In this document: in pieces, positions 138 to 21,700 of the stretch | How the letters are laid out: every line of letters begins with the position of its first letter | How positions within the stretch are numbered: the first letter of the stretch is position 1 | Source: a virus | UHGV virus genome: UHGV-0080740 | Strand: one strand, 5' to 3' | Length of the DNA stretch: 23,502 nucleotides | Position numbers and translations under genes: made by a program | Notes under the pieces: generated by a model | Database searches by the model: none | What the model was told of the DNA's origin: nothing | Seen by the model: the letters and a program-made list of their open reading frames with translations, nothing else

Positions 138-425
138 TTATTTCATCCGTTCACTGGCGAGATGATAAACGTTGCTGCGTTCACGTTTACCTACTGCGAC
201 GACCGCAATAATTAACATATCATCAATAACCTGATAAACCAGACGAAAACCTGATGCGCGAAGTTTGATTTTATAGCAGTCCTTTAATCCACGTAGTTTT
301 GCAGAAGCTATATGAGGATTTTCACTGCATTTTTTCAGTTTTTTTGCGAACTGCTGCTGAATGGTCTTGTCCAGTCTGAGCCATTCTTTCAGTGCATCAT
401 CCCGGAATTTTACTGTATAAGTCAT
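138..425 (-). CDS. RelE/ParE-family (StbE-like) type II toxin, 95 aa
   Basis: Family-typical C-terminus FRLVYQV...IIAVVAVGKRERSNVY; 4-nt overlap with upstream antitoxin ORF. Confidence 0.8.
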   Translation of the reverse strand: MTYTVKFRDDALKEWLRLDKTIQQQFAKKLKKCSENPHIASAKLRGLKDCYKIKLRASGFRLVYQVIDDMLIIAVVAVGKRERSNVYHLASERMK

Positions 426-673
426 AAATAACTGTCCAGGTCCACATCATGCAGAGGCTGACTGCTGCGTTCAGTAACCAGTTTTACCAGCTCCTGGTCA
501 TCCAAGGCATCAAGCATTCTTTCATAGAGCTCAGCAGGGACACAGTAGAATGCTGGCTGATTCCGGTTAAGAATGGCAACAGGATACCCCTCTCCGGCAC
601 TGACAGTTGCCATCGGATTTTTTTTCAGCTCACTGACGCTTGCACTGGTGTCAGACAAAATGATACTGGGCAT
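422..673 (-). CDS. Phd/YefM (StbD-like) antitoxin, 83 aa
   Basis: Small acidic protein with Phd/YefM-like N-terminus, directly upstream of and overlapping the RelE-like gene; SD GAGGTG 5 nt before ATG. Confidence 0.75.
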   Translation of the reverse strand: MPSIILSDTSASVSELKKNPMATVSAGEGYPVAILNRNQPAFYCVPAELYERMLDALDDQELVKLVTERSSQPLHDVDLDSYL

Positions 674-1171
674 AACACACCTCTGAGACTATTTAACAGG
701 TCTTCAGATTACACCCTGAAAGACTGCTTAACAAGTCTGTTTGATGTTAATGTGCGCCGTCACTCTTCAGTTGTCCTGATGCCGCGCCAGCGGCATGGAA
801 GGCGGCACTCTGTTGTTTCATATGATACCGGAGTAAAACCGCCGAAGCCCGGCGTAAGCCGGTACTGACTGATAGATTTCACCTTACCCACCCCCGGCCC
901 TGCTAAGCCATACCCGTTTTCAGCCATGACAGAGCCTTTGTGCGCGGTCGGAGTGGTCCCGACGAGGGTTTACCCGAAGTCGGGGCGTATCTCCGCGTTA
1001 GCGGGCCGTGAGGGCCGCTTACGAGCGTGTACTGAGGACTTCCAGCCAGAAGACTGACAGCGATGACAATGTACTTACAACATTCATAATTAAAAGCGAT
1101 GTTGTTCCCGCCCTTCGGGTGGGGGCGGCGGCGCTTTTCAGTTATGAGGGGGGGTACAGTGCTGTGTTTGT

Positions 1172-4100
1172 GTGGTGTTTTTTATTCCTGATGTTTTTTT
1201 GTTGTGGTTTCAGAACGGTGAGATTCGGGGCCCGCGCGTTAGCGTGGGAGGTGCTCCTGTTCTTGGTACTGATGGCACTCCAGTTATGCGCGATGCCCTA
1301 AAACTGGCAGATGAAGCCACTATCACGGCGCGGATGAACGCGATCCCGCACTCAAATTACCGTGCAGTCGTGTTTACCAAAGAACAATACGCCCGCATTC
1401 CGCTACGTGATGACACCGTAGATGAGCATGCACAGGATATGCTTTATGACTTCGTTGCCGCCGGGCGCGTAGCCAGCGCAATGGACTCCGACTCCCACCG
1501 CAAAGAGGCCGCGCGTCGCCGGGTATTGTCGGAGTATTCAGATACCGGTACCGAAAAAGCAGAGAAGTATCCGTACTTTGAGGATATGGGCTTCGATAGT
1601 GTGATCGCTGACGAAGGTCACAACTACCGCAATAGCTATAAAAATGGTCGCGAAGCGTCACAACTGGCCTATCTGCCCACCAGCGCGGTGGCGCAATCGG
1701 CGCGGGATATGGCAATTAAAAACGCGTACCTGATGAAAAAGAATGGTGGGCGCGGACCGGTTCTCCTGACTGCAACGCCAGTCGTTAACACCCCGATCGA
1801 TGCATACAACATGCTTTCTCATGTGCTGCCGAAGGAATACTGGCAGAAGATGGGGATCTACGGTCCTGATGACTTCGTTAAATTCTTCGGCAAGACCAGG
1901 CTGGAAACGGTACAGAAAATCAGCGGTGAAGTTGAAGAAAAAATGGCGCTGGTGGGCTTTGAAAACCTTGATGCGCTGCGCGGCATATTCCATCGCTGGA
2001 CAACGCTTAAAACGGCGGAAGACGTTAAGGATACCGTGGAGATCCCGGAACTGGACGAACACCAGCAGGATGCACCACTTACTGAAGAACAACTGGCGGC
2101 GTATGAAGAATTACGCCAGCAGGCGGAAGCGGTGGCCAAAGCCAACAATGGCGTAACGACCTCGGTCGATGAAGACGGAGTGATTGAGCACGAGAAAGCC
2201 CGTCCGATCTTCTCAATAATCAGGGATATGGACCGCGTATGTACTGACATGGACCTGTACTATCGCCGGATCACCTATCGTTTCCTGCCGGAGTACGCCG
2301 ATGCGGTGCAGCAGCTGGCGGACAGTTTGCCTAAACAAGCCACCAGCGAAGACGACGACAGTGATGATTCAATCACGCAGCAATCGCAATACTCCCTGAT
2401 AGATAAGGGCGAGTTTATTCAGTTGCAGGTTCCGGAAGCGTTCGAGCAGGAAGTGAATAAGCGCCTGGCCAGGTTTGGCATTGACGAACAGACCGTAACT
2501 CACCCCGTTACGCCCAAATACGCGAAGCTGATTGCCACGCTGAAGGAGTTTTTCCCGGAAGGGAAGCAAATCATCTTCACCGACGAAAAAACGCAGCACC
2601 AGAAGCTCAAGCGCATTATCTGCAATGTTCTTAACCTTGAACCTTCAATGGTAGGGATCCTGAATGCTCAGACGGTTGCCGAGGCAGGTAAAACCGGTAA
2701 GAAACTGAAAGCGGTTAAACCGCCGAAAGAGTTACCGGATGAACCAACAGATGCACAGATAGCGAAATACAACGAGCAAATGGCTCTGTATGACGCCTAT
2801 ATCGCGCAGCAAAATGAAATGTCGTTGGGCGGTCTGGAAAAGATTGCAGCCGACTTCCAGGAGGGCCGGACTCCGATCATTATCTGCAACAAAAAGGCAG
2901 AGGTGGGTATCAACCTGCATCGAGGAACGACTGACATCCATCATCTGACGTTGCCATGGACACCAGCCAGTGTCGCACAGCGTAACGGTCGCGGTGCCCG
3001 AGTTGGCTCCAACCGTGCAAGCGTTCGCGTTCATTACTACTGCGGCAAGGGTTCTTTCGATGAATACCGACTGAAGACGCTGAAGCGTAAAGCAGGCTGG
3101 ATCTCCGATATCCTCCGTTCAGATAAGTCAGAAATGGAGAACGCCGACGCCAACGATATGATCGAAATGCAGATGTATACCGCTAAGGATGATGGCGAAC
3201 GTCTGGCAATGATGCAGGTTCAAATGGATAAGGCGAAAGCCGCGCAACGCGCCCGCCAGAAAGAACAGGCCGCTATCGACCTTCAGAACTACATCAAGGC
3301 GCAACATGCAGCTGGCGAGGATGTTGCGGCTCTTACCGCTGAATTAGAGCGAAGTAAAGCGGAACTTGAAAAGACCACCGCCGAGGTAGCTAAATTCAAA
3401 CAGGCGGTAATGGCCAAAGCAGCTGATAATGCAGGCTGGAAGGCCCGCTGGGGTAGCGTCCATCACACAGACCGTACGTTGTTAGCACATTATCGCGCGT
3501 CGTTGAAAAGCGCCATTCAGCGCAAGGCTAATATCACTCAAGCCATCTCCCGCTATGAGAAATTATTGAACCGTACTCAGAAGGCCGCGACGGATATCAA
3601 ACGCCTGCGCCCGCTGGTGGAGGATGCAATAAATAAAGGCATTCTGGATGTTGATCCTGATCTGGTTAACCATGCGAATGAGTTCCTTGTTATCGGCGAT
3701 CGCTCATGGCGTGTAGGCCAATACTACGATTGTGCCGGTGATATCGTTCGCATTAAGTCGCTGGACTTCGACAGCCAGCGCGCAGACGTGGAGATCATCT
3801 TTACCTTCAAAGGCACCAAATCGGGTAACTGGGATGTGAAGACGCTGGATAAACAGGTGGATGTAACTCCCGATGAAGATGCTGTTATGCAGAAAATCAG
3901 TGGTGGCGTCTCCATCGCCGGGATTAACGACATCATTTCCTGTGACGATTTCTACCGTTTCCAGCAGCGCGGCATGATCAAAATCACTGACTCATACGGC
4001 GTTCAGACTACAGAGTCAGGCTATAGCATTGATTTTGTTGGTACCTATACGGACCCACTGAAGCATGCGGTTTACCCGGATCGCCGTGACGGCGCGCTGA

Positions 4101-5224
4101 AGTCGTCAATTGCAAAATGGGTGCTTGGTATGATGTCGGAAGGGAATAACCGCCAGGTCCGTTTGGCAGAAGTATTCCTGACTGAACTGTTTGGCTCCAA
4201 TTATGGCGAAGTAATCGCGTCATACGGAGATACGCTATCCCCTGAAGCAATTCAGGAGAAAATAGCGGATGCGATCGCCAGAATGCCGGAGAAAACAAGC
4301 CAGGGGGCTACTCGTAACGGGGATTCTGAACTTGAGGTCACCAATGCCATTTTCGGTACCCATGAGTTCCGGGCGTCAGATTATGAGATCACCACAGCAC
4401 AGTTTGGCACCATTGGCATTTACAGCAATAAAGACGAGATCAAGCAGGCAATGGACGCTGCAAGCGCGCGTATTGCAGCAGAACGGAAAGCCAATCTGAA
4501 TCATGCAGTCGCCGCGCTGACTCAATCGTGGGTAACAGCAATCAGGGAGGCCGCCACCACAGGGAAAATCACACCGGCAATTGCGGATGTCGTAAACGAC
4601 GGCTCTAAATTTATGGATGCCTATCAAATGGATGCGGTGCAGTTGCCATCAGCCTATGGGCAACTCAGCTATCGCATGACCTACAACCTGGTATCAATGT
4701 TTTCCGACCTTGCCATCCTTGGGCTGGTGGACCTTAACGAGGTTACGCCGGAATTGCTTAGCATGCGCAAGAATCATGTTGAGATATTGCAGAGAATTAA
4801 CACGGTTCTTGCCGGGCGCACCGATGAAGAGAAACAGGCCGACGCTGATCGGATAAACCTGGCCCTAGGCAACATCACGGAGGAAGAAATTGCCGCCAGA
4901 AACGAGAAACAAGAAGAGTTATCATCAATACAGGGTGATGCCACCAGCATAGCTCAGTCTCTTGGTCTGAATTATCGCGTATCCACCGCCGACCTGAAGA
5001 TGATGTACGCACCAAAATTCGCAGCTGGTGAGGTATTTGGGCTTCAGGAGGCGTCCGGCATGAAAGGCGTTCTTTTCCGTGCTAAAGACGCAATCAAGGA
5101 AAAATTCGGCGCTCGCTGGCTGCCAGCGAAGGCGAAGAACAGCGATTTCCCGGGCAACTGGTGGATTATCGAGACAAAACACAACGTGGCGGACGTTCTG
5201 GCCGTCATCCAACAATACGCATAA
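1172..5224 (+). CDS. darB: SF2 helicase-domain protein, DarB-like, apparently 5'-truncated (1350 aa from GTG)
   Basis: Helicase motifs II (IADEGH), III (TATPVVN) and VI (QRNGRGARVG) present, no Walker A upstream; in-frame TGA at 1145-1147; position upstream of ulx/lxc-like genes fits P1 darB (about 2255 aa, recalled). Confidence 0.6.
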   Translation: MVFFIPDVFLLWFQNGEIRGPRVSVGGAPVLGTDGTPVMRDALKLADEATITARMNAIPHSNYRAVVFTKEQYARIPLRDDTVDEHAQDMLYDFVAAGRVASAMDSDSHRKEAARRRVLSEYSDTGTEKAEKYPYFEDMGFDSVIADEGHNYRNSYKNGREASQLAYLPTSAVAQSARDMAIKNAYLMKKNGGRGPVLLTATPVVNTPIDAYNMLSHVLPKEYWQKMGIYGPDDFVKFFGKTRLETVQKISGEVEEKMALVGFENLDALRGIFHRWTTLKTAEDVKDTVEIPELDEHQQDAPLTEEQLAAYEELRQQAEAVAKANNGVTTSVDEDGVIEHEKARPIFSIIRDMDRVCTDMDLYYRRITYRFLPEYADAVQQLADSLPKQATSEDDDSDDSITQQSQYSLIDKGEFIQLQVPEAFEQEVNKRLARFGIDEQTVTHPVTPKYAKLIATLKEFFPEGKQIIFTDEKTQHQKLKRIICNVLNLEPSMVGILNAQTVAEAGKTGKKLKAVKPPKELPDEPTDAQIAKYNEQMALYDAYIAQQNEMSLGGLEKIAADFQEGRTPIIICNKKAEVGINLHRGTTDIHHLTLPWTPASVAQRNGRGARVGSNRASVRVHYYCGKGSFDEYRLKTLKRKAGWISDILRSDKSEMENADANDMIEMQMYTAKDDGERLAMMQVQMDKAKAAQRARQKEQAAIDLQNYIKAQHAAGEDVAALTAELERSKAELEKTTAEVAKFKQAVMAKAADNAGWKARWGSVHHTDRTLLAHYRASLKSAIQRKANITQAISRYEKLLNRTQKAATDIKRLRPLVEDAINKGILDVDPDLVNHANEFLVIGDRSWRVGQYYDCAGDIVRIKSLDFDSQRADVEIIFTFKGTKSGNWDVKTLDKQVDVTPDEDAVMQKISGGVSIAGINDIISCDDFYRFQQRGMIKITDSYGVQTTESGYSIDFVGTYTDPLKHAVYPDRRDGALKSSIAKWVLGMMSEGNNRQVRLAEVFLTELFGSNYGEVIASYGDTLSPEAIQEKIADAIARMPEKTSQGATRNGDSELEVTNAIFGTHEFRASDYEITTAQFGTIGIYSNKDEIKQAMDAASARIAAERKANLNHAVAALTQSWVTAIREAATTGKITPAIADVVNDGSKFMDAYQMDAVQLPSAYGQLSYRMTYNLVSMFSDLAILGLVDLNEVTPELLSMRKNHVEILQRINTVLAGRTDEEKQADADRINLALGNITEEEIAARNEKQEELSSIQGDATSIAQSLGLNYRVSTADLKMMYAPKFAAGEVFGLQEASGMKGVLFRAKDAIKEKFGARWLPAKAKNSDFPGNWWIIETKHNVADVLAVIQQYA

Positions 5225-5257: not shown

Positions 5258-5698
5258 ATGGCCACACTATCTGATACAATAAAACCGAATAAAACATATC
5301 TTGAGGCGGTACTCCGTACAGCGTTGTTAGGAAAGACAGAAGACGAATACGTTGATTTCTTCCTGTCAGGGCTACGCGGGCGATTACTGAAAAATCCCCG
5401 CCTGTACCGCAGCTATGGCCCATACTGGCCGGAAATTAAAAAATTATTACTGGAGCGCGGTTATGGTAATTTCGGTCGTCTCGTTGACCGTGACGTTCGC
5501 AAATTTTACCGTTATGACCGCCCGGCGCTAACACTCATAGCCGCGACGCTCTACAGCCAGGAGCGTTTTGATAATGGTCAGATATACTCAGCCTGGCATT
5601 TACTGCCAGTCCCTGAAGAAGTTGACGACCAGGACTATGAGTTTGAGTCTTACGATTTGGAAGTTGAAGCCTTGGCACAGGCTGGAGAGAAAACTTGA
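5258..5698 (+). CDS. hypothetical protein, 146 aa (ulx position, upstream of lxc)
   Basis: Clean ORF between darB-like and lxc-like genes; stop overlaps next start; name is positional only. Confidence 0.55.
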   Translation: MATLSDTIKPNKTYLEAVLRTALLGKTEDEYVDFFLSGLRGRLLKNPRLYRSYGPYWPEIKKLLLERGYGNFGRLVDRDVRKFYRYDRPALTLIAATLYSQERFDNGQIYSAWHLLPVPEEVDDQDYEFESYDLEVEALAQAGEKT

Positions 5699-5943
5699 AA
5701 AAGCGATACTACACAGTAAAGCATGGGACGCTACGAGCATTACAAGAGTTTGCTGACAAGCATAACGTTGAGGTGCGCAGGGAAGGGGGAAGTAAAGCTC
5801 TGCGCATGTACCGTCCGGACGGGAAATGGCGGACGGTCGTCGATTTCAAAACAAACAGCGTTCCCCAGGGCGTCCGCGACCGGGCATTCGAAGAATGGGA
5901 GCAGATCATCATAGATAATGCTCTGCTACTAAATGCTGACTGA
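5695..5943 (+). CDS. lxc: Lxc/Bof-like C1 co-repressor, 82 codons with TTG start
   Basis: 82-codon ORF starting at TTG with SD GGAGA 5 nt upstream; matches my recollection that P1 bof/lxc is an 82-codon TTG-initiated ORF. Confidence 0.55.
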   Translation: MKKRYYTVKHGTLRALQEFADKHNVEVRREGGSKALRMYRPDGKWRTVVDFKTNSVPQGVRDRAFEEWEQIIIDNALLLNAD

Positions 5944-6202: not shown

Positions 6203-6715
6203 TTAAACTCTCACTATGTATAGATAATCAGTTAAGTCTCTTAGTTTCCAATGTTTAGATACATCTGAAAGAAATATGCTGCGTACTTTCCCTGAGAAAG
6301 TAGGCATACCAGACTTAAGAAAAGCTCTAAGGTTGTCAACATCACTAAAAATTGAAAGTAATGAAAAAGTTAAAGCATCCTTAAAATCAGGATGTATATG
6401 ATTCTGGTCACTTATATTATCGATCATCCTGATTAATAAATCAGGATAAGCAAAAGACTTTTTTAGCAAATGTGGGCATTTATCCAGAAGTTGCTTCCCT
6501 TGGTGATTGTGACAAGATAAATAGTTTCTTACAGCACTATCATTAAGTTCGAATTCGATATATTTATCTGAATAGGTTTGTAAGAATTCGCGTTCAGAAT
6601 GTTTAAGCAACAGCACATCACCATAATTTAATATTAAGAAATCCTTAAGAAATTGAAAATTTATCGGTTTCTTTATAAGGATGAAGTAACAGACTCCTGA
6701 CATAGCTACCACCAT
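6203..6715 (-). CDS. hypothetical protein, 166-170 aa, AT-rich cargo gene (alternative start at 6703)
   Basis: Only long ORF on this strand in the AT-rich island; GGTGG precedes ATG at 6703; no recognisable domain; contains R-x5-H (AVRNYLSCH). Confidence 0.5.
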   Translation of the reverse strand: MVVAMSGVCYFILIKKPINFQFLKDFLILNYGDVLLLKHSEREFLQTYSDKYIEFELNDSAVRNYLSCHNHQGKQLLDKCPHLLKKSFAYPDLLIRMIDNISDQNHIHPDFKDALTFSLLSIFSDVDNLRAFLKSGMPTFSGKVRSIFLSDVSKHWKLRDLTDYLYIVRV

Positions 6716-6855
6716 TCTAAAGAGGCTTTGAACAAGAATAGAGATACAGCAGCACTGAAATCAAGAAGTTGTGCAAAAAATAAAAATATTGATTTGTGTC
6801 ATAGTTGCTGCTTTTTATTATTTAATTTTTATCAATTTCACTACAGATAAATAAA

Positions 6856-6887
6856 TTGACATAGTGTGTAACCCCTGTAAATATAAA
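6856..6887 (+). promoter_or_regulatory. candidate sigma70 promoter for the EAL-domain gene
   Basis: TTGACA at 6856-6861, about 16-17 bp spacer, A/T-rich -10-like TAAATA/TATAAA, about 50 bp upstream of ATG 6938. Confidence 0.35.
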
Positions 6888-6937
6888 GGGCACTTTATCT
6901 GCTAAAGCCAACCAATTTAAAAATAGAGGGTGGGAGC

Positions 6938-7627
6938 ATGGAAGTTATCTACATAGTAGAACCAATCATTTCCACAAGCACTAACAAGTTGATAGCAGTG
7001 GAAGTGTTGAGCAGATTTTATTCCAACGAGGGGGCTATTCTTTCTACTCAGAAAGTATTAGGTATGTTTACAAGCAAGATGAAGATTAACTTGCTAAAAT
7101 CTCAACTTAACACAATAATCAAATATAAGTATTTTTTTGAATGCCATAATATATTATGCTCTATCAATGTAGATTATGATACCTGTTTATATATATATGG
7201 CAATAAACAAATTCAAGAACTACTAATAAACAATAAATTTATAGCGATTGAGATATCAGAAAACTATCCTGATTTAAGCGATGAGGATTACATCATATCC
7301 TTTCTACTGACTTTGACAGATAATGTTTGGCTTGATGATTTTGGAAGTGGTAACGCCACCATGAAAGCATTAATTAAAAATAAATATCATGCAATAAAAC
7401 TTGATAAGTCATTTTTTCAAGAGCATATGATTAAGCCTCATTTTGATGTCATTATTAGCAATTTAAAAAAGTTATGTCCGAATATCATCGCTGAAGGCGT
7501 CGAAAACATTGATTGTCATAAGTTATCAAAAGGGATAGGGCTATGGGGCACTCAGGGATATTTTTTCCCATCAATTCCGCTGACGGAGATTGAGTCCATA
7601 GATAGTAAGTGGCTATCAGATTTATGA
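6938..7627 (+). CDS. stand-alone EAL-domain protein, YdiV-like, 229 aa
   Basis: EAL signatures in order: EVLSR (EAL variant), EISE, DDFGSGNATMKAL, KLDKSF, EGVE, QGYFF; no sensor or GGDEF domain; strong SD GGGTGGGAG. Confidence 0.8.
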   Translation: MEVIYIVEPIISTSTNKLIAVEVLSRFYSNEGAILSTQKVLGMFTSKMKINLLKSQLNTIIKYKYFFECHNILCSINVDYDTCLYIYGNKQIQELLINNKFIAIEISENYPDLSDEDYIISFLLTLTDNVWLDDFGSGNATMKALIKNKYHAIKLDKSFFQEHMIKPHFDVIISNLKKLCPNIIAEGVENIDCHKLSKGIGLWGTQGYFFPSIPLTEIESIDSKWLSDL

Positions 7628-12560: not shown

Positions 12561-13706
12561 TTATTCAGCCGCCACCGGTTTTAACAAGCCAGCATCGAGC
12601 AGTTTACGCGTCAACCACTGTTGTCCTTTCCCCGTTAATTGGGGCGTCAGCCGTATCTGGTAGCCATCTTCATCATCCAGCACCACTTCTTTCACTGTGA
12701 AATATCCGGCGTTTATGTACTGCTGGAACGGCACATTTTTACGCCCGCCGGACGCTATCAGAATGCCGTTCTCCCGTAACCAGGCAAACAGCGCGTTTTG
12801 CTTCAGCCCAACAACCTTTGCAAAATTACCAATCAGGATCCCCTTAGCCACTGATACACGGTCGGCAAAATCGACCTTGGGGGCTGCGGCCACCAGTTGT
12901 TGATTTAGCTGGTGGGCCTTCTGTTCCAGTAGCTGCTTTTGTTCAGCCAGCTCGGCAGCCAGGCGCAAGGCTTCAGGTAGTGTTTGGGGGATTGCGACCG
13001 GTTGCTGTTCTTTTTGCCGGAAGTAGCTGTCTTCCAGTTTTTCAAAGAATGCCCATGCTTCATCTGTGTTTACGATCTTAGACATGCGTGCCGCTCCGCG
13101 TTCGGCCCAAAGAATTACCTGGCTTGTATATTTGCTAACCAGGTGACTAGTAGTCACCAGCCTTTTAAATTCCTTTAATTTTGAACCAGTTAAGAGATAG
13201 TAATGCTTACCTTCTTCAAAGCGATCGGAGTTGCGAGACAAATTTTTACGAATATTAGCTTCATCGGTTCCATACCCCTTAGCAAGAGTTTCGGTCGTTA
13301 CTACACGCACTCCCAGCCATTCCAGAACGGGAATTTCATCAGACTGATTCTGAACAACCACCAGCTCTGATTCCTGAACTGAAGTTGCATGAATTTTTTC
13401 TGATTTAACGTTAGTTGCTTTCATTCTGTGTGCCTCCTTGCGTGCTTCGGCTGCGACGGTTGCGTAATTCAGATGACCCTGTTCGAGCAGGTATTCACGG
13501 ATATCGGTCACAGCGATAGCCTTTAAGCGCAGATAAACATCGCGCTTATCGACATCCAGATGCGGGTATTCCTTTTCAAGAATTGCTGCGAGTTCTTTCG
13601 CTGATAGAAGAGATTTAGTGCGGATCATGTAATCCGCAATCTCGTACGATGTTATTCGTGAGTGATTTATTTCCATGAAGTGGCGTCCCTGCCAGTTAAG
13701 TAACAT
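12561..13706 (-). CDS. antirepressor-like protein with KilA-N/ORF6N-type and KilAC (ANT) domains, 371-381 aa
   Basis: Central segment VRVVTTETLAKGYGTDEANIRKNLSRNSDRFEEGKHYYLLTG fits ORF6N/KilA-N; C-terminus GILIGNFAKVVGLKQNALFAWLRENGIL...NVPFQQYINAGYFTV fits KilAC; alternative start at 13676. Confidence 0.7.
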   Translation of the reverse strand: MLLNWQGRHFMEINHSRITSYEIADYMIRTKSLLSAKELAAILEKEYPHLDVDKRDVYLRLKAIAVTDIREYLLEQGHLNYATVAAEARKEAHRMKATNVKSEKIHATSVQESELVVVQNQSDEIPVLEWLGVRVVTTETLAKGYGTDEANIRKNLSRNSDRFEEGKHYYLLTGSKLKEFKRLVTTSHLVSKYTSQVILWAERGAARMSKIVNTDEAWAFFEKLEDSYFRQKEQQPVAIPQTLPEALRLAAELAEQKQLLEQKAHQLNQQLVAAAPKVDFADRVSVAKGILIGNFAKVVGLKQNALFAWLRENGILIASGGRKNVPFQQYINAGYFTVKEVVLDDEDGYQIRLTPQLTGKGQQWLTRKLLDAGLLKPVAAE

Positions 13707-19531: not shown

Positions 19532-20043
19532 GCCGCGTTTCCTTCTTTCTTATTAACAATTACACCGTCATATATTTCATTAAGGTGCCCTCTCAACTCC
19601 ATGCGCCTTAATGCAGATAACATGTAATCGCATTCAACCTGCTTATTTCCAGTAAATGGCTTATCGTCAGGATTACCCCAACAGCAATTACCCTTGGGCC
19701 ACCCATGTACTTTCCGTACTCTTCCGTTAACAACGTGAAGTAATCCCCAGCCAGGTGGTAAATCCTCAATTGAAATAATTCCCGGCTCACTAATAAAGAA
19801 TCGCCAGTCGCCCATTCCAAGAGACGGATTTTTACGAAAACGCTTTTTTCTATCTGCCAACAAGTCAGCACGAGAACACTTCGCCTCTATCAGGCATGAT
19901 GCTGAATTTCTGAATCCCATAGCATCTGGCTGTTCTCCGGTACTGGTTACAGCTATAAAGCGGTCATGAAAACAAACCTTGAACCCGTTGCGCTTAAGGA
20001 ACTTGTACGCAATCTGACAGAGTTCGCGGTGTGTTAACGCCAT
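19528..20043 (-). CDS. hypothetical protein, 171 aa, possible PD-(D/E)xK nuclease fold
   Basis: D-x(n)-EAK arrangement (PDAMGF...CLIEAKCS); fold assignment tentative. Confidence 0.5.
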   Translation of the reverse strand: MALTHRELCQIAYKFLKRNGFKVCFHDRFIAVTSTGEQPDAMGFRNSASCLIEAKCSRADLLADRKKRFRKNPSLGMGDWRFFISEPGIISIEDLPPGWGLLHVVNGRVRKVHGWPKGNCCWGNPDDKPFTGNKQVECDYMLSALRRMELRGHLNEIYDGVIVNKKEGNAA

Positions 20044-20044
20044 A

Positions 20045-20411
20045 TCACTCTCCTTTGATGCGAATGCCAGCGTCAGACATCATATGCAGATACTCAACTG
20101 CATCCTGAACCCATTGACCGCCAATCCCGTAATAGCGATGCGTAATGATGTCGATAGTTACTAACGGGTCTTGTTCGATTAACTTCCGTAGAAACTCTTC
20201 CAGGTCACCAGTGCAGTGCTTGATGACAGGAGTTTTCCCAGGATGGCGAACAACAAGAAACTGATTTCCGACTTCACGGACTTCGTTGCTTTCCAGTTCT
20301 GCTATCCATAAAAATGAAATGGACGCTAACGCCAGCTTTTCGCTGTGCTTCCATCAGATGAACGAGATAAGCCGATGTTCGTCCACCTGAAAAGCTGACG
20401 ACTTGATGCAT
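20045..20411 (-). pseudogene. PP-loop ATPase-like gene (SGGxxS motif) split by a frameshift
   Basis: Frame A MHQVVSFSGGRTSAYLVHLMEAQRKAGVSVHFIFMDSRTGKQRSP stops at 20274-20276; the -1 frame is open from 20353 to 20045; frames overlap 20274-20353. Confidence 0.45.
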
Positions 20412-20420
20412 ACTCACGGT

Positions 20421-20999
20421 TTATTCCTGAATGCGCTTAAACTCGATTACCCATACCAACGGGTTAGATAGCCAGTTATCCTGCCCGTAAATACTGCGCC
20501 AGATATCACCAAAACCAACGCGATAAACAGCTTCAGATGGCGTAATCTTGTACGTCGCCGGAGTTGCGCCTTCTGCTTTAGCATCTTCCTCGCTCATGTC
20601 ATGCAGCCGTTCCACACGCACGTCGGTAATTTCCAAAAGAATGCGCGATGCCCAGCGCGGCATGTGAATTGATGGCGTCCACTTTTCTGATACTGGTTTA
20701 TTACAAACCTCGACCGGAACCCGGTGCGTTTGTTCTGTCCAGGAGTTACGCACGCTTGCGCGATAAACCAGCGTTGCGACGTCCGTCGCTTTGCCATGTA
20801 CCCGGTAGGTTTCGCGAACCCAAATACGATCGCCCGGTTGACCATATGGACAATGCTTGGCAAGCAACTCTGCGGCCACTGCCCGTCCATAGAATTTTTC
20901 TTCAACAATCCTGCGAGTCTGTGTTTTATTCCCGCCAAGAATTGCCCGGACCATCTCATCGTTAAAAATCATGCCGCGCTCTTTCACTTCGCCTTTCAT
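20421..20999 (-). CDS. hypothetical protein, 192 aa, ASCH/PUA-like N-terminus (tentative)
   Basis: N-terminus IFNDEMVRAILGGNKTQTRR resembles the ASCH GxKxxExR region. Confidence 0.55.
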   Translation of the reverse strand: MKGEVKERGMIFNDEMVRAILGGNKTQTRRIVEEKFYGRAVAAELLAKHCPYGQPGDRIWVRETYRVHGKATDVATLVYRASVRNSWTEQTHRVPVEVCNKPVSEKWTPSIHMPRWASRILLEITDVRVERLHDMSEEDAKAEGATPATYKITPSEAVYRVGFGDIWRSIYGQDNWLSNPLVWVIEFKRIQE

Positions 21000-21008
21000 G
21001 CATCCCCC

Positions 21009-21095
21009 TTACCCATGTGCGACGATGCCGCCAAAAGTGATAGAGAACAGCCAGAAATAGATCGCGGCCATAATGATTTTGAATGCCGTGTTCAT
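21009..21095 (-). CDS. candidate hydrophobic micro-protein, 28 aa
   Basis: MNTAFKIIMAAIYFWLFSITFGGIVAHG; SD AGGAG 8 nt upstream; CCAATCAATCA just upstream of SD. Confidence 0.35.
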   Translation of the reverse strand: MNTAFKIIMAAIYFWLFSITFGGIVAHG

Positions 21096-21123
21096 ATTTT
21101 CAGCTCCTGTGATTGATTGGATA

Positions 21124-21149
21124 CATGCCGCGCCTTGCGGCATGTTTTT
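21124..21149 (+). terminator. hairpin plus T-run (+ strand terminator; on - strand a 5'-UTR stem-loop downstream of C1 operator)
   Basis: catgccgc-gcctt-gcggcatg followed by tttttatttt. Confidence 0.45.
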
Positions 21150-21177
21150 ATTTTCACTTTCTCTGTTTTAAAAATCA

Positions 21178-21194
21178 TTATTTATTAGAGCAAT
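21178..21194 (-). promoter_or_regulatory. C1 operator
   Basis: - strand ATTGCTCTAATAAATAA, 15/17 to consensus; at the 3' end of the HAD-like gene, upstream of the micro-ORF/ASCH operon. Confidence 0.7.
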
Positions 21195-21700
21195 TATTGT
21201 TGATGGAGAAGCGCGTTTTCATACTCCCTGACCATTAACGTAAGCACGCCGTGCCTCCTGAAAACACGCGCCACTTCAATCTTATCTTCCAGCGCGAACG
21301 CAATTTTGCTTAGACCAATTTTCTTAAGGAGATCAATCTTTGCTGGACCGTCATTTCTGTCATCGGTGGCGGGACGCATAGATAGCAAAGGCTCTGCCCC
21401 ATTTGTTACGTGCTTACGCAACCAGGCTCGTGTTTTATCCCTGGCTATCTCACAGCGCCCGGTTACAAACCAGAGCGTGTAAATGCTGGACAACTGGCGC
21501 ACCATATCAATAACTGGAGTGATGGAAGCATCAGTGTCACAGGCAAGGTTAAACTCGTTCCAGTGCTCTGTTAATGCACCGTTGCCAGGCGGTGGAAGTA
21601 AATGCAGCCTGTCTTCCGTTGCCTCCGATATCGTTCCATCAATATCTACTATGACAATGTACGGACGTTCCTGGTGTGCGTGTTTATTGAAAATACTCAA
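21194..21700 (-). CDS. HAD-superfamily phosphatase-like protein, 168 aa (TTG start)
   Basis: Motif I IVIVDIDGTI (DxDGT); strong SD GAGGAGGG before TTG. Confidence 0.6.
   Translation of the reverse strand: MSIFNKHAHQERPYIVIVDIDGTISEATEDRLHLLPPPGNGALTEHWNEFNLACDTDASITPVIDMVRQLSSIYTLWFVTGRCEIARDKTRAWLRKHVTNGAEPLLSMRPATDDRNDGPAKIDLLKKIGLSKIAFALEDKIEVARVFRRHGVLTLMVREYENALLHQQ

Follow-up and report, generated by a model that had tools for sequence, protein, structure and literature searches.

In natural plasmids with IncFII and I-complex (IncI1, IncK, and IncB/O) replicons, the repA4 region follows immediately after oriR, starting at its distal edge. repA4 is the subject of Jiang et al. 1993, and the start of the leading strand in R1 that of Bernander et al. 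1992. Ter sites have been placed in the repA4 region (PMC4398462), and in pEntH10407, with the gene order repA1-ori-repA4-stbD-stbE, stbD and stbE have the same sizes and order as the antitoxin and toxin genes described below (PMC2762410). The DarB protein of phage P1, a virion protein with N6-adenine methyltransferase and SF2 helicase domains, serves in defense against restriction. It carries its capsid-targeting signal in the first 30 residues (PMC9024508). When analyzed with Pfam, the full-length protein (2255 aa) contained N6_Mtase and Eco57I domains (aa 145-290) and an SNF2/ResIII N-lobe (aa 833-911); motif II (DEGH) was located at 1052, downstream of Walker A (GTGLGKT; about aa 854-860).

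The window, i.e., the whole stretch of 23,502 nucleotides that was analyzed (virus genome UHGV-0080740), contains parts of both systems side by side. In our interpretation (probability about 0.88), a 1.1-kb remnant of an IncFII-type replicon was fused to the middle of darB in a degraded P1-derived plasmid, leaving an ordinary recombination scar. The features of the region were as follows.

138-425, minus strand: gene for a RelE/StbE-family toxin of 95 aa (Pfam ParE_toxin, E=3.6e-15)
422-673, minus strand: gene for a Phd/YefM-type (StbD-like) antitoxin of 83 aa, overlapping the toxin gene by 4 nt
674-778, minus strand: putative promoter/operator region of the toxin-antitoxin (TA) pair, in which AGACnnnTTAACAnGTCT occurs twice as an 18-nt palindrome (686-703 and 721-738)
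449-868, plus strand: mechanically called ORF of 139 aa
760-927, minus strand: ORF of 55 aa, hypothetical in the annotations of natural plasmids
779-1255, unstranded: repA4 region of an IncFII/I-complex replicon, 477 bp
779-867, plus strand: candidate G4-type primase signal (G-site), with hairpins at 779-796, 801-843, and 849-862, then TACTG at 863-867
940-1030, unstranded: near-invariant hairpin-rich core (80 of 91 columns invariant in 82 natural replicons)
1008-1301, plus strand: mechanically called ORF of 97 aa
1071-1090, minus strand: Ter-like (Tus-binding) site, ATTATGAATGTTGTAAGTAC, mutated in its core, and a partial inverted copy, GCGATGTTGTTCCC, at 1096-1109 (plus strand)
1145-1154, plus strand: TGA and G-run, part of the plasmid block and not a scar, at positions kept in natural plasmids
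1225-1255, unstranded: 31-bp end of the block, CGGGGCCCGCGCGTTAGCGTGGGAGGTGCT (27 of 30 columns invariant), with a final base that abuts the junction on its left
1256-5224, plus strand: darB remnant, P1 darB codons 934-2255 plus the stop codon
5258-5698, plus strand: ulx, in P1 synteny (about 98% identity)
5695-5943, plus strand: lxc, in P1 synteny (about 98% identity)

The accessory region around the joint was rich in copies of IS1, IS3, IS26, and IS91.

In the alignment, homology with P1 darB began at 1256 and homology of the pCT type stopped at 1255 (window coordinates). Partial matches to a junction-spanning query in database searches broke between query positions 69-70 and 71, corresponding to 1254-1255 and 1256, and the exact joint consisted of GGGAGGTGCT followed by CCTGTTCTTGG. 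The original prediction had implied a breakpoint at the TGA and G-run (1145-1172); the true joint was 84-110 bp to the right, beyond the span (674-1200) that it had considered. An in-frame TGA at 1145-1147 ahead of the ORF at 1172-5224 was present as described, followed by a run of seven G at 1148-1154, and natural plasmids have GAGGGGTGGGCACGG or GAGGGGGGGGTACAG at the same position. A comparison of the flanks with both source sequences revealed no overlap, filler DNA, or microhomology at 1255/1256, and neither a flanking inverted nor a direct repeat was found. Inspection by eye gave no convincing match to an Xer/dif-like or Chi-like motif at this boundary. A search for IS ends and inverted terminal repeats was also negative, in agreement with the earlier statement that no IS end was recognizable. 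Although the neighborhood is full of IS1, IS3, IS26, and IS91 copies, formation of the junction by an IS or transposon with an end that is now unrecognizable is extremely improbable: both sides of the joint match their own sources up to the final nucleotide, with no terminal inverted repeat, target duplication, or filler at 1255/1256, and IS-mediated adjacent deletions usually leave the IS at the joint.

The ORF at 1172-5224 (plus strand) encodes 1350 aa from a GTG start. Its first 28 codons are plasmid DNA that happens to be in frame with darB. The remaining 1322 codons are the 3' part of darB, with 97.8% nucleotide identity over 3969 nt and 98.6% amino acid identity to P1, and ulx and lxc come next in the same order as in the phage. 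The N-terminus of P1 DarB did not fall at ~1172, and position 1256 corresponded to codon 934, in support of the proposed breakpoint in darB. With codon 934 as the first P1 codon in the alignment, the capsid-targeting (packaging) signal, methyltransferase domain, and helicase motif I were lost together with codons 1-933. In the window ORF, Pfam detected Helicase_C and, of the SNF2-related domain, the distal portion alone. N6_Mtase and Eco57I were absent, as expected from the predicted loss of the methyltransferase part, and the description of a protein with motifs II onward and no Walker A was also accurate: DEGH and Helicase_C were kept, and GTGLGKT (the P-loop) was gone. The remnant further differed from the P1 locus in lacking the whole Walker A/motif Ia lobe, PdarB, and the divergent prt/pro genes, and in relatives this gene is being lost piecemeal. 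In RefSeq, it is labeled 'helicase-related protein' with a start at ATG 1334. Expression of a truncated DarB protein may be possible, given the uninterrupted frame of 1322 codons and the presence of the gene in RefSeq. A promoter-like site upstream of the remnant (1063-1090) had 10 of 12 consensus matches, while one such match is the chance expectation, and this candidate was rejected.

Two complete relatives with 99.9% identity to the window, NZ_CP036204.1 and pMRE162, contained no 5' darB, prt, or pro. Because these sequences were absent from complete relatives, the event was a deletion or replacement and not a simple insertion, and of the "deletion or insertion" originally proposed only the deletion can be maintained. 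A blunt, homology-free recombination or deletion would have joined the ori-proximal end of the plasmid fragment to darB codon 934, taking repA, copA, CIS, and oriR from the plasmid side and darB codons 1-933 with the prt/pro neighbors from the P1 side.

The sequence left of 1256 was, as suspected, foreign to P1: it is a fragment of the replication region of an IncFII-family plasmid (RepFIIA/I-complex type) and not P1 backbone. The segment at 779-1255 showed 93.8% identity to IncK pCT (L002, 4001-4479), 92.6% to IncI1 R64, and 93.9% to pE15-3, and the range was 90-94% in the eight natural replicons examined. It matched 88 distinct copies; at least 5000 plasmids contained it, as did 4079 of the 5426 E. 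coli genomes, and one RefSeq record (H69) bears the annotation 'RepA4' on the block. The features shared with the blocks of NR1/R100/R1 (IncFII) and R64/pCT were the sequence itself (92-94%), the Ter-like inverted repeat, GC hairpins, a T-rich tract, and the 31-bp end, and a TA pair of the stbDE type on the far side of the block was common to the window, pEntH10407, pE15-3, and pE2855-1. On the other hand, the distance from the block end to the repA stop was 366-370 bp in each of the eight natural replicons studied closely, whereas the block of the window lacks repA, CIS, and oriR, which naturally lie within this distance, and is fused to a phage gene instead. Positions 139-1254 aligned in a single piece with pE15-3 (93.9%) and pPK8261 (93.5%); the TA pair, operator region, and repA4 block thus form one collinear fragment of 1117 bp (139-1255). 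Since the closest natural plasmid was only about 94% identical, the donor is unsampled. The GC content was 0.55-0.61 over about 751-1125 versus about 0.41 in the TA genes. The description of this stretch as GC-rich was therefore correct, while the statement that it lacks ORFs of at least 60 aa was only approximate: the ORFs at 449-868 and 1008-1301 overlap its edges.

The presence of a stbDE-like RelE/Phd pair beside the GC-rich stretch was verified. The toxin scored 35.8 bits with NCBIfam TIGR02385 RelE_StbE (cut-off 27.9), matched a solved E. coli RelE over its full length (E=1e-29), and was annotated as a RelE/ParE toxin in all matching records. The antitoxin remained below the curated cut-offs, with 24 bits for Pfam PhdYeFM_antitox (PF02604; cut-off 29.8) and a YafN-like score of 41 bits (cut-off 99), and no solved homologue was found for it. 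In their sizes, overlapping genes, and upstream palindromes, the pair resembled StbDE and RelE-Phd hybrid type II modules, from which nothing else notable differed. The AGACnnnTTAACAnGTCT palindromes were retained in the divergent allele of a relative (L105) and are probable operators. This intact pair probably remains active in plasmid addiction, and such activity would favor retention of the scar.

No RepA homologue was detected in the whole window by tblastn with RepA of pCT and pE15-3. Similarity to ori/CIS was not significant in the whole window, with a single 14-nt match at chance level (E=0.06), and no DnaA box was found at 1-1600; in pCT, the DnaA box lies about 200 bp past the equivalent of the junction. 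A surviving replicon was therefore rejected, and the repA4 fragment cannot replicate anything because no replication initiator or origin is left.

Alternatively, the actual functional unit might be a product of the GC-rich stretch, either a regulatory RNA with a defined fold or a small protein (RepA4, or that of the 55-aa ORF at 760-927). Both strands gave hairpin-rich folds (z of about -2.5), the 91-nt core is nearly invariant (the single-stranded fold of 900-1045 had z=-2.5), and some records carry RepA4 or hypothetical ORF annotations. However, a scan of the whole window with Rfam at the gathering threshold was negative, and allowing E values up to 10 at 600-1400 added just two hits at chance level (E 3-4), leaving the structured RNA raised for 860-1170 in the original prediction with no credible match. 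Furthermore, the invariance of the core leaves no covariation signal, many plasmids have a repA4 ORF that is split or not annotated, and its frame in the window would begin in present-day darB. An RNA or protein product is thus very unlikely, and the un-annotated GC-rich DNA beside the darB remnant is better regarded as a replicon fossil than as a new element or RNA.

The junction was carried by 133 PLSDB plasmids and, among the 5426 complete E. coli genomes, by 137. Most carriers were typed as mobilizable or non-mobilizable, and the natural hosts of the block are conjugative. Junction contigs with 89-97% identity to the window first suggested that the junction had formed recurrently. This was rejected: L105 was identical to the window from about 940 through the joint, including the junction surroundings, and its left part was another allele, with a crossover near 940. 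Since L105 differed only further left, a later homologous exchange accounts for the divergence, and the darB joint is a single historical event. Homology to common IncF/IncI plasmids over 1.1 kb can serve as a substrate for homologous recombination, as shown once, in L105, and is a plausible route for cointegration or allele exchange. Signs of decay were also found: relatives carried six independent lesions, and IS and deletion events had hit the junction area in two of the relatives (L008 and L009). The ratio of nonsynonymous to synonymous changes was 16:12 within the lineage versus 19:66 against P1 (Fisher p=0.0009, from small counts and sequences that are not independent).

The distance between the G-site and oriR in plasmids of this kind is about 400 bp. 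At the candidate G-site, the single-stranded fold had z=-2.6, the distance from the ori-proximal end of the block was 388-392 bp, and CTG was present at the corresponding position in 73 of the 88 aligned blocks (absent in 15). It shares with phage G4 oric, where the annotated primer start is at CTACTG, an arrangement of three hairpins, the last of which has a 4-nt loop in the window, and, like a G4-type ssi, its orientation would prime away from the origin; nevertheless, there is no sequence homology with G4 oric, and the fold is weaker (z=-2.6 vs -5.1). A second primase candidate, GTGTACTG at 1030-1036, was rejected, and 863-867 was preferred, because the trinucleotide after GTA(C/T) is highly variable in natural copies and about 220 bp separate the site from the edge of the origin. 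Concerning the Ter-like site, the conserved core GTTGTAAC(T/G)A of Tus-Ter replication fork barriers was not matched: the window has GTTGTAAGTA, versus GTTGTAACTA in 83 of 88 blocks. Natural replicons contain GTTGTAACTAC (83 of 88 rows), while C at 1074, giving GTTGTAAG, was limited to five rows, all of them bearing the darB junction. These Ter and G-site assignments, based on position, fold, and background literature, are putative.

That the fragment still works as a primase site, as a Tus-Ter barrier, or as a 'homology handle' through which the P1-derived plasmid would be mobilized in cointegrates with conjugative IncF/IncI plasmids is unlikely. The three hairpins and the CTG layout are intact in the window, the block is otherwise well conserved in the 133 plasmids, L105 has exchanged homologous sequence with the allele of another plasmid inside the block, and the carriers differ in mobility type from the conjugative natural hosts, all of which are compatible with a retained function. 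However, the Ter core is altered at a base for which the 83 remaining rows, every natural replicon among them, uniformly have G, the junction area has been disrupted in L008 and L009, and the conservation among carriers is accounted for by recency, clonality (99-100% identity), and linkage to the addictive TA pair. The Ter and primase sites are presumably relics without a role.

The position of the joint itself was peculiar. The terminal 31 bp matched by 100% even in a plasmid (L015) whose R100-like IncFII homology pauses at 1145-1154 and picks up again at 1225, and 27 of the 30 terminal columns were invariant even though the neighboring 70 bp had diverged. The two natural ori classes became unalignable immediately after ...GGGAGGTGC(T/A), and darB follows the same T. 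The joint was thus within 1 nt of the point at which these classes lose similarity, a coincidence that a random end point would give only ~3 times in 860. These data could mean that the repA4 block has at its ori-distal end, …GCGTGGGAGGTGC^, a mechanistically determined DNA terminus or a hot spot of recombination, where replication intermediates of IncFII/I-complex plasmids would stop and be readily joined illegitimately, for instance through nascent strands halting at RepA-bound oriR; if true, this would cover both the sharp I-complex/FII module boundary and the darB joint at the same nucleotide. We nonetheless consider it unlikely, since the darB joint is a single event, the comparison was post hoc, and no Xer-, Chi-, or IS-like motif was visible by eye. 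Moreover, only three partners were found after the terminal motif in one scan each of metagenomes (104 contigs) and species genomes (four): 54 I-complex, 45 FII, and five darB among the contigs (one contig was too short to class), and I-complex in 4/4 species genomes. Unless this coincidence proves mechanistic, the locus does not imply new biology.

The recombination scar is of practical relevance to plasmid annotation. The 'helicase-related protein' of 1296-1350 aa in >100 RefSeq plasmids is a pseudogene remnant of darB, and a repA4 fragment without repA may mislead homology-based typing of replicons or relatedness. Conversely, the joint GGGAGGTGCT/CCTGTTCTTGG provides a handy clonal marker for these widespread, degraded P1-derived plasmids. 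pMRE162 has this joint, as do plasmids carrying CTX-M-55, qnrS1, and oqxAB.

The left end of the window carries a recombination scar in which a truncated P1 darB is fused to the stbDE-repA4 tail of an IncFII-family replicon, both of them well known, and the original prediction of a truncated darB beside foreign DNA was essentially right. In a megablast search against phage genomes, homology with the darB-ulx-lxc region of P1, P7, and SJ46 (97-98%) ran from position 1256 on, corresponding to codon 934 of P1 darB (2255 codons). Alignment with pCT (IncK) covered 779-1255 at 93.8% identity, with the last base directly before 1256. When the window was compared side by side with plasmid and P1, plasmid sequence extended up to ...GGGAGGTGCT and P1 sequence from CCTGTTCTTGG... 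on, and no shared bases, filler, or repeats were found at 1255/1256; neither IS ends nor a target duplication were found at the joint, and no Rfam family matched. A query of 140 nt centred on 1255/1256 was searched against PLSDB and 5426 complete E. coli genomes: 133 PLSDB records contained full-length matches, as did 139 records from 137 of the 5426 genomes, and half-matches broke at query positions 69-70/71 (window 1254-1255/1256). The ORF at 1172-5224 (+) was confirmed, as were the in-frame TGA (1145-1147) and the seven consecutive G that precede it; however, the TGA and G-run are not the breakpoint proposed earlier, being plasmid-derived, present in natural plasmids, and located 84-110 bp left of the joint.

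The GC-rich character of the adjoining DNA was also confirmed (GC of 0.55-0.61 over 751 to ~1125, versus 0.41 in the toxin-antitoxin (TA) genes), and this block is the "repA4 region". Matches to 779-1154 (or 779-1255) at ~90-94% were found in at least 5000 records of plasmids and in 4079 of the 5426 E. coli genomes. In all eight natural replicons examined in detail (pCT, R64, pSE11-1, an O178 plasmid, pE2855-1, pE15-3, pPK8261, and an R100-like Shigella plasmid), repA of the IncFII family or the I-complex (IncI1, IncK, and IncB/O) was just upstream of the block, and 366-370 bp separated the equivalent of 1255 from the repA stop codon. Since this distance is accompanied in pCT by a DnaA box (TTATCCACA) ~200 bp past the equivalent of 1255, and the minimal oriR is 188 bp (PMC5883639), the block starts approximately at the distal edge of oriR. 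RepA4 was annotated on the block in one RefSeq record (H69). The gene order of pEntH10407 is repA1, repA4, a small ORF, stbD, and stbE, with matching distances (PMC2762410); for pEC958, the ori is placed between repA1 and repA4, and repA4 is stated to carry the ter sites and to be important for stability (PMC4398462). Positions 139-1254 aligned in a single piece with pE15-3 (93.9%) and pPK8261 (93.5%), both arranged as relE-phd-block-ori-repA, and homology was limited on the left just beyond the relE stop codon and on the right by the darB joint; therefore, the foreign insert amounts to 1117 bp of a replication region. The window contains no other part of this replicon: neither a RepA homologue nor significant ori/CIS similarity was detected in it (one 14-nt match was at chance level, E=0.06), and a DnaA box was absent from 1-1600.

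Alignment of 88 distinct copies of the block revealed the following features.

779-867 (+): candidate G4-type priming site; three hairpins, then TACTG, the last hairpin being CCGGC-GTAA-GCCGG
940-1030: hairpin-rich core; 80 of 91 columns invariant in 82 natural replicons, z=-2.5
1071-1090 (-): Ter-like site; 83 of 88 copies read ATTATGAATGTTGTAACTAC, and 1096-1109 is a partial inverted copy
~1107-1131: GC hairpin preceding a short T-run (~1136-1139)
~1160-1210: longer T-rich tract, 3' of the G-run
1225-1254: invariant block end; 27 of 30 columns invariant

The first site has its layout in common with the complementary-strand origin of phage G4, in which the third hairpin is followed by the CTG where the annotated primer begins; among the 88 copies of the block, 73 have CTG at this place. 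A distance of 388-392 bp separates the site from the origin edge, and its strand would serve as template for synthesis running away from the origin. In R1 and NR1, leading-strand synthesis begins at a primase "G-site", located ~400 bp downstream of oriR and close to the 3' end of repA4. The site fits this arrangement, and 779-867 may be a primase G-site of the G4 type. The flanks of the 940-1030 core were variable across the 82 natural IncFII/I-complex replicons, and the core had no Rfam family. At base 1074, the Ter-like core was GTTGTAAG only in five junction-bearing rows (the window and four others), whereas the remaining 83 aligned repA4 blocks all had GTTGTAAC, the position being otherwise fixed. 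This change, specific to the junction lineage, is consistent with a loss of constraint on the Ter core.

The I-complex origin (…GGTGCT/TTTAGATTCTGAGCGG) and the FII origin (…GGTGCA/TATTTGTCTGTCCACAGG) were unalignable from the same nucleotide as the darB joint (window 1225-1256 compared with pCT at 4479 and a further compared sequence, L007, at 3636). Among 104 metagenome contigs, the terminal motif was followed by the I-complex origin (54), the FII origin (45), or darB (5), with one too short to classify, and in 4 species genomes by the I-complex origin only; no other partner was found at the block end (108 contigs). Given a single darB event, this coincidence of joint and module boundary may be chance: an end point placed uniformly would give it in ~3 of 860 cases, by a post hoc estimate. 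Alternatively, the oriR edge may have a preferred DNA end, a reading that we regard as improbable.

The joint arose in a single event, and the scar is an ordinary one that spread clonally within one family of plasmids, degraded derivatives of P1; its worth is in annotation and plasmid typing, rather than in new biology. A junction-bearing metagenome contig (L105; equivalent of 151-1394) appeared only 89% similar, yet from ~940 onward, across the joint and into darB, it matched the window exactly; its TA genes and left block were of another allele (~87% identity), with a crossover near 940. This pattern indicates a later homologous exchange with the TA/repA4 allele of another plasmid. The complete relatives NZ_CP036204.1 (65.9 kb) and pMRE162 (76.9 kb) both lacked 5' darB, prt, and pro, and no phage morphogenesis genes were annotated in either. 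Rather than a clean insertion, the event was therefore a deletion or replacement within an already mosaic, IS-rich, P1-derived plasmid. pMRE162 (NZ_CP119405.1, from the laboratory strain E. coli MRE162) was 99.9% identical to the window except for a deletion in the darB remnant and 20040-21628, which it lacks; it still has a RepB-family replication initiator, parAB-like partition genes, cre, and c1, without phage structural genes.

The predicted RelE/Phd pair was found as two overlapping minus-strand genes at the window start.

138-425 (-): RelE/StbE-family toxin, 95 aa
422-673 (-): Phd/YefM-like antitoxin, 83 aa
686-703 and 721-738: palindromes of 18 nt each, AGACTATTTAACAGGTCT and AGACTGCTTAACAAGTCT, in the stretch that separates the antitoxin start from the block

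Both palindromes, kept in the divergent L105 allele, are probably antitoxin operators. The TA genes are intact in the window, and we infer that they are the likeliest reason for the persistence of the scar.

As predicted, the remnant (1256-5224) contains helicase motifs from II onward without Walker A, and Pfam detected only the distal half of an SNF2-related domain and Helicase_C. Full-length P1 DarB has N6_Mtase (aa 145-290), the SNF2/ResIII N-lobe (aa 833-911), and GTGLGKT (~854-860), and its capsid-targeting signal is the N-terminal 30 residues (PMC9024508); in contrast, the remnant is without this signal, the methyltransferase domain, and the P-loop. Plasmid sequence, in frame by chance, makes up the first 28 codons of the mechanical ORF, and the gene start in RefSeq is ATG 1334. 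No convincing promoter for the remnant was found, one match being at chance level. Comparison of 1256-5224 with relatives (L008, L009, L051, L086, L124, and L126) revealed six independent lesions.

Deletion of 1287-3407
Deletion of 2719-3817, in pMRE162
Deletion of 1525-3098
54-nt deletion
Frameshifting 7-nt insertion
IS3 at 1247

The nonsynonymous:synonymous ratio was 16:12 in the lineage versus 19:66 against P1 (Fisher p=0.0009, with small counts and non-independent sequences). The remnant has a pseudogene pattern, although the frame remains open in the window copy.

The flank left of the TA module is a hot zone of IS activity. In NZ_CP101265.1 (L004, positions 1-42, lying 174 bp to the left of window position 1), an apparent IS1 end breaks the conserved left flank, and a class 1 integron integrase lies shortly past it. 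Other relatives have a flank that runs on into pseudogene fragments and an autotransporter gene. Elsewhere in the window, region 6203-7627 holds, in the place of mod/res (EcoP1I) in P1, a YdeO-like AraC-family fragment on the minus strand (6203-6715), which is a pseudogene in relatives, as well as an EAL-domain c-di-GMP phosphodiesterase-like gene on the plus strand (6938-7627). A 381-aa gene adjoining c1 (12561-13706), the counterpart of which is annotated as a KilAC-domain antirepressor in relatives, is intact in the window and a pseudogene in NZ_CP101265.1, NZ_CP036204.1, and pMRE162.
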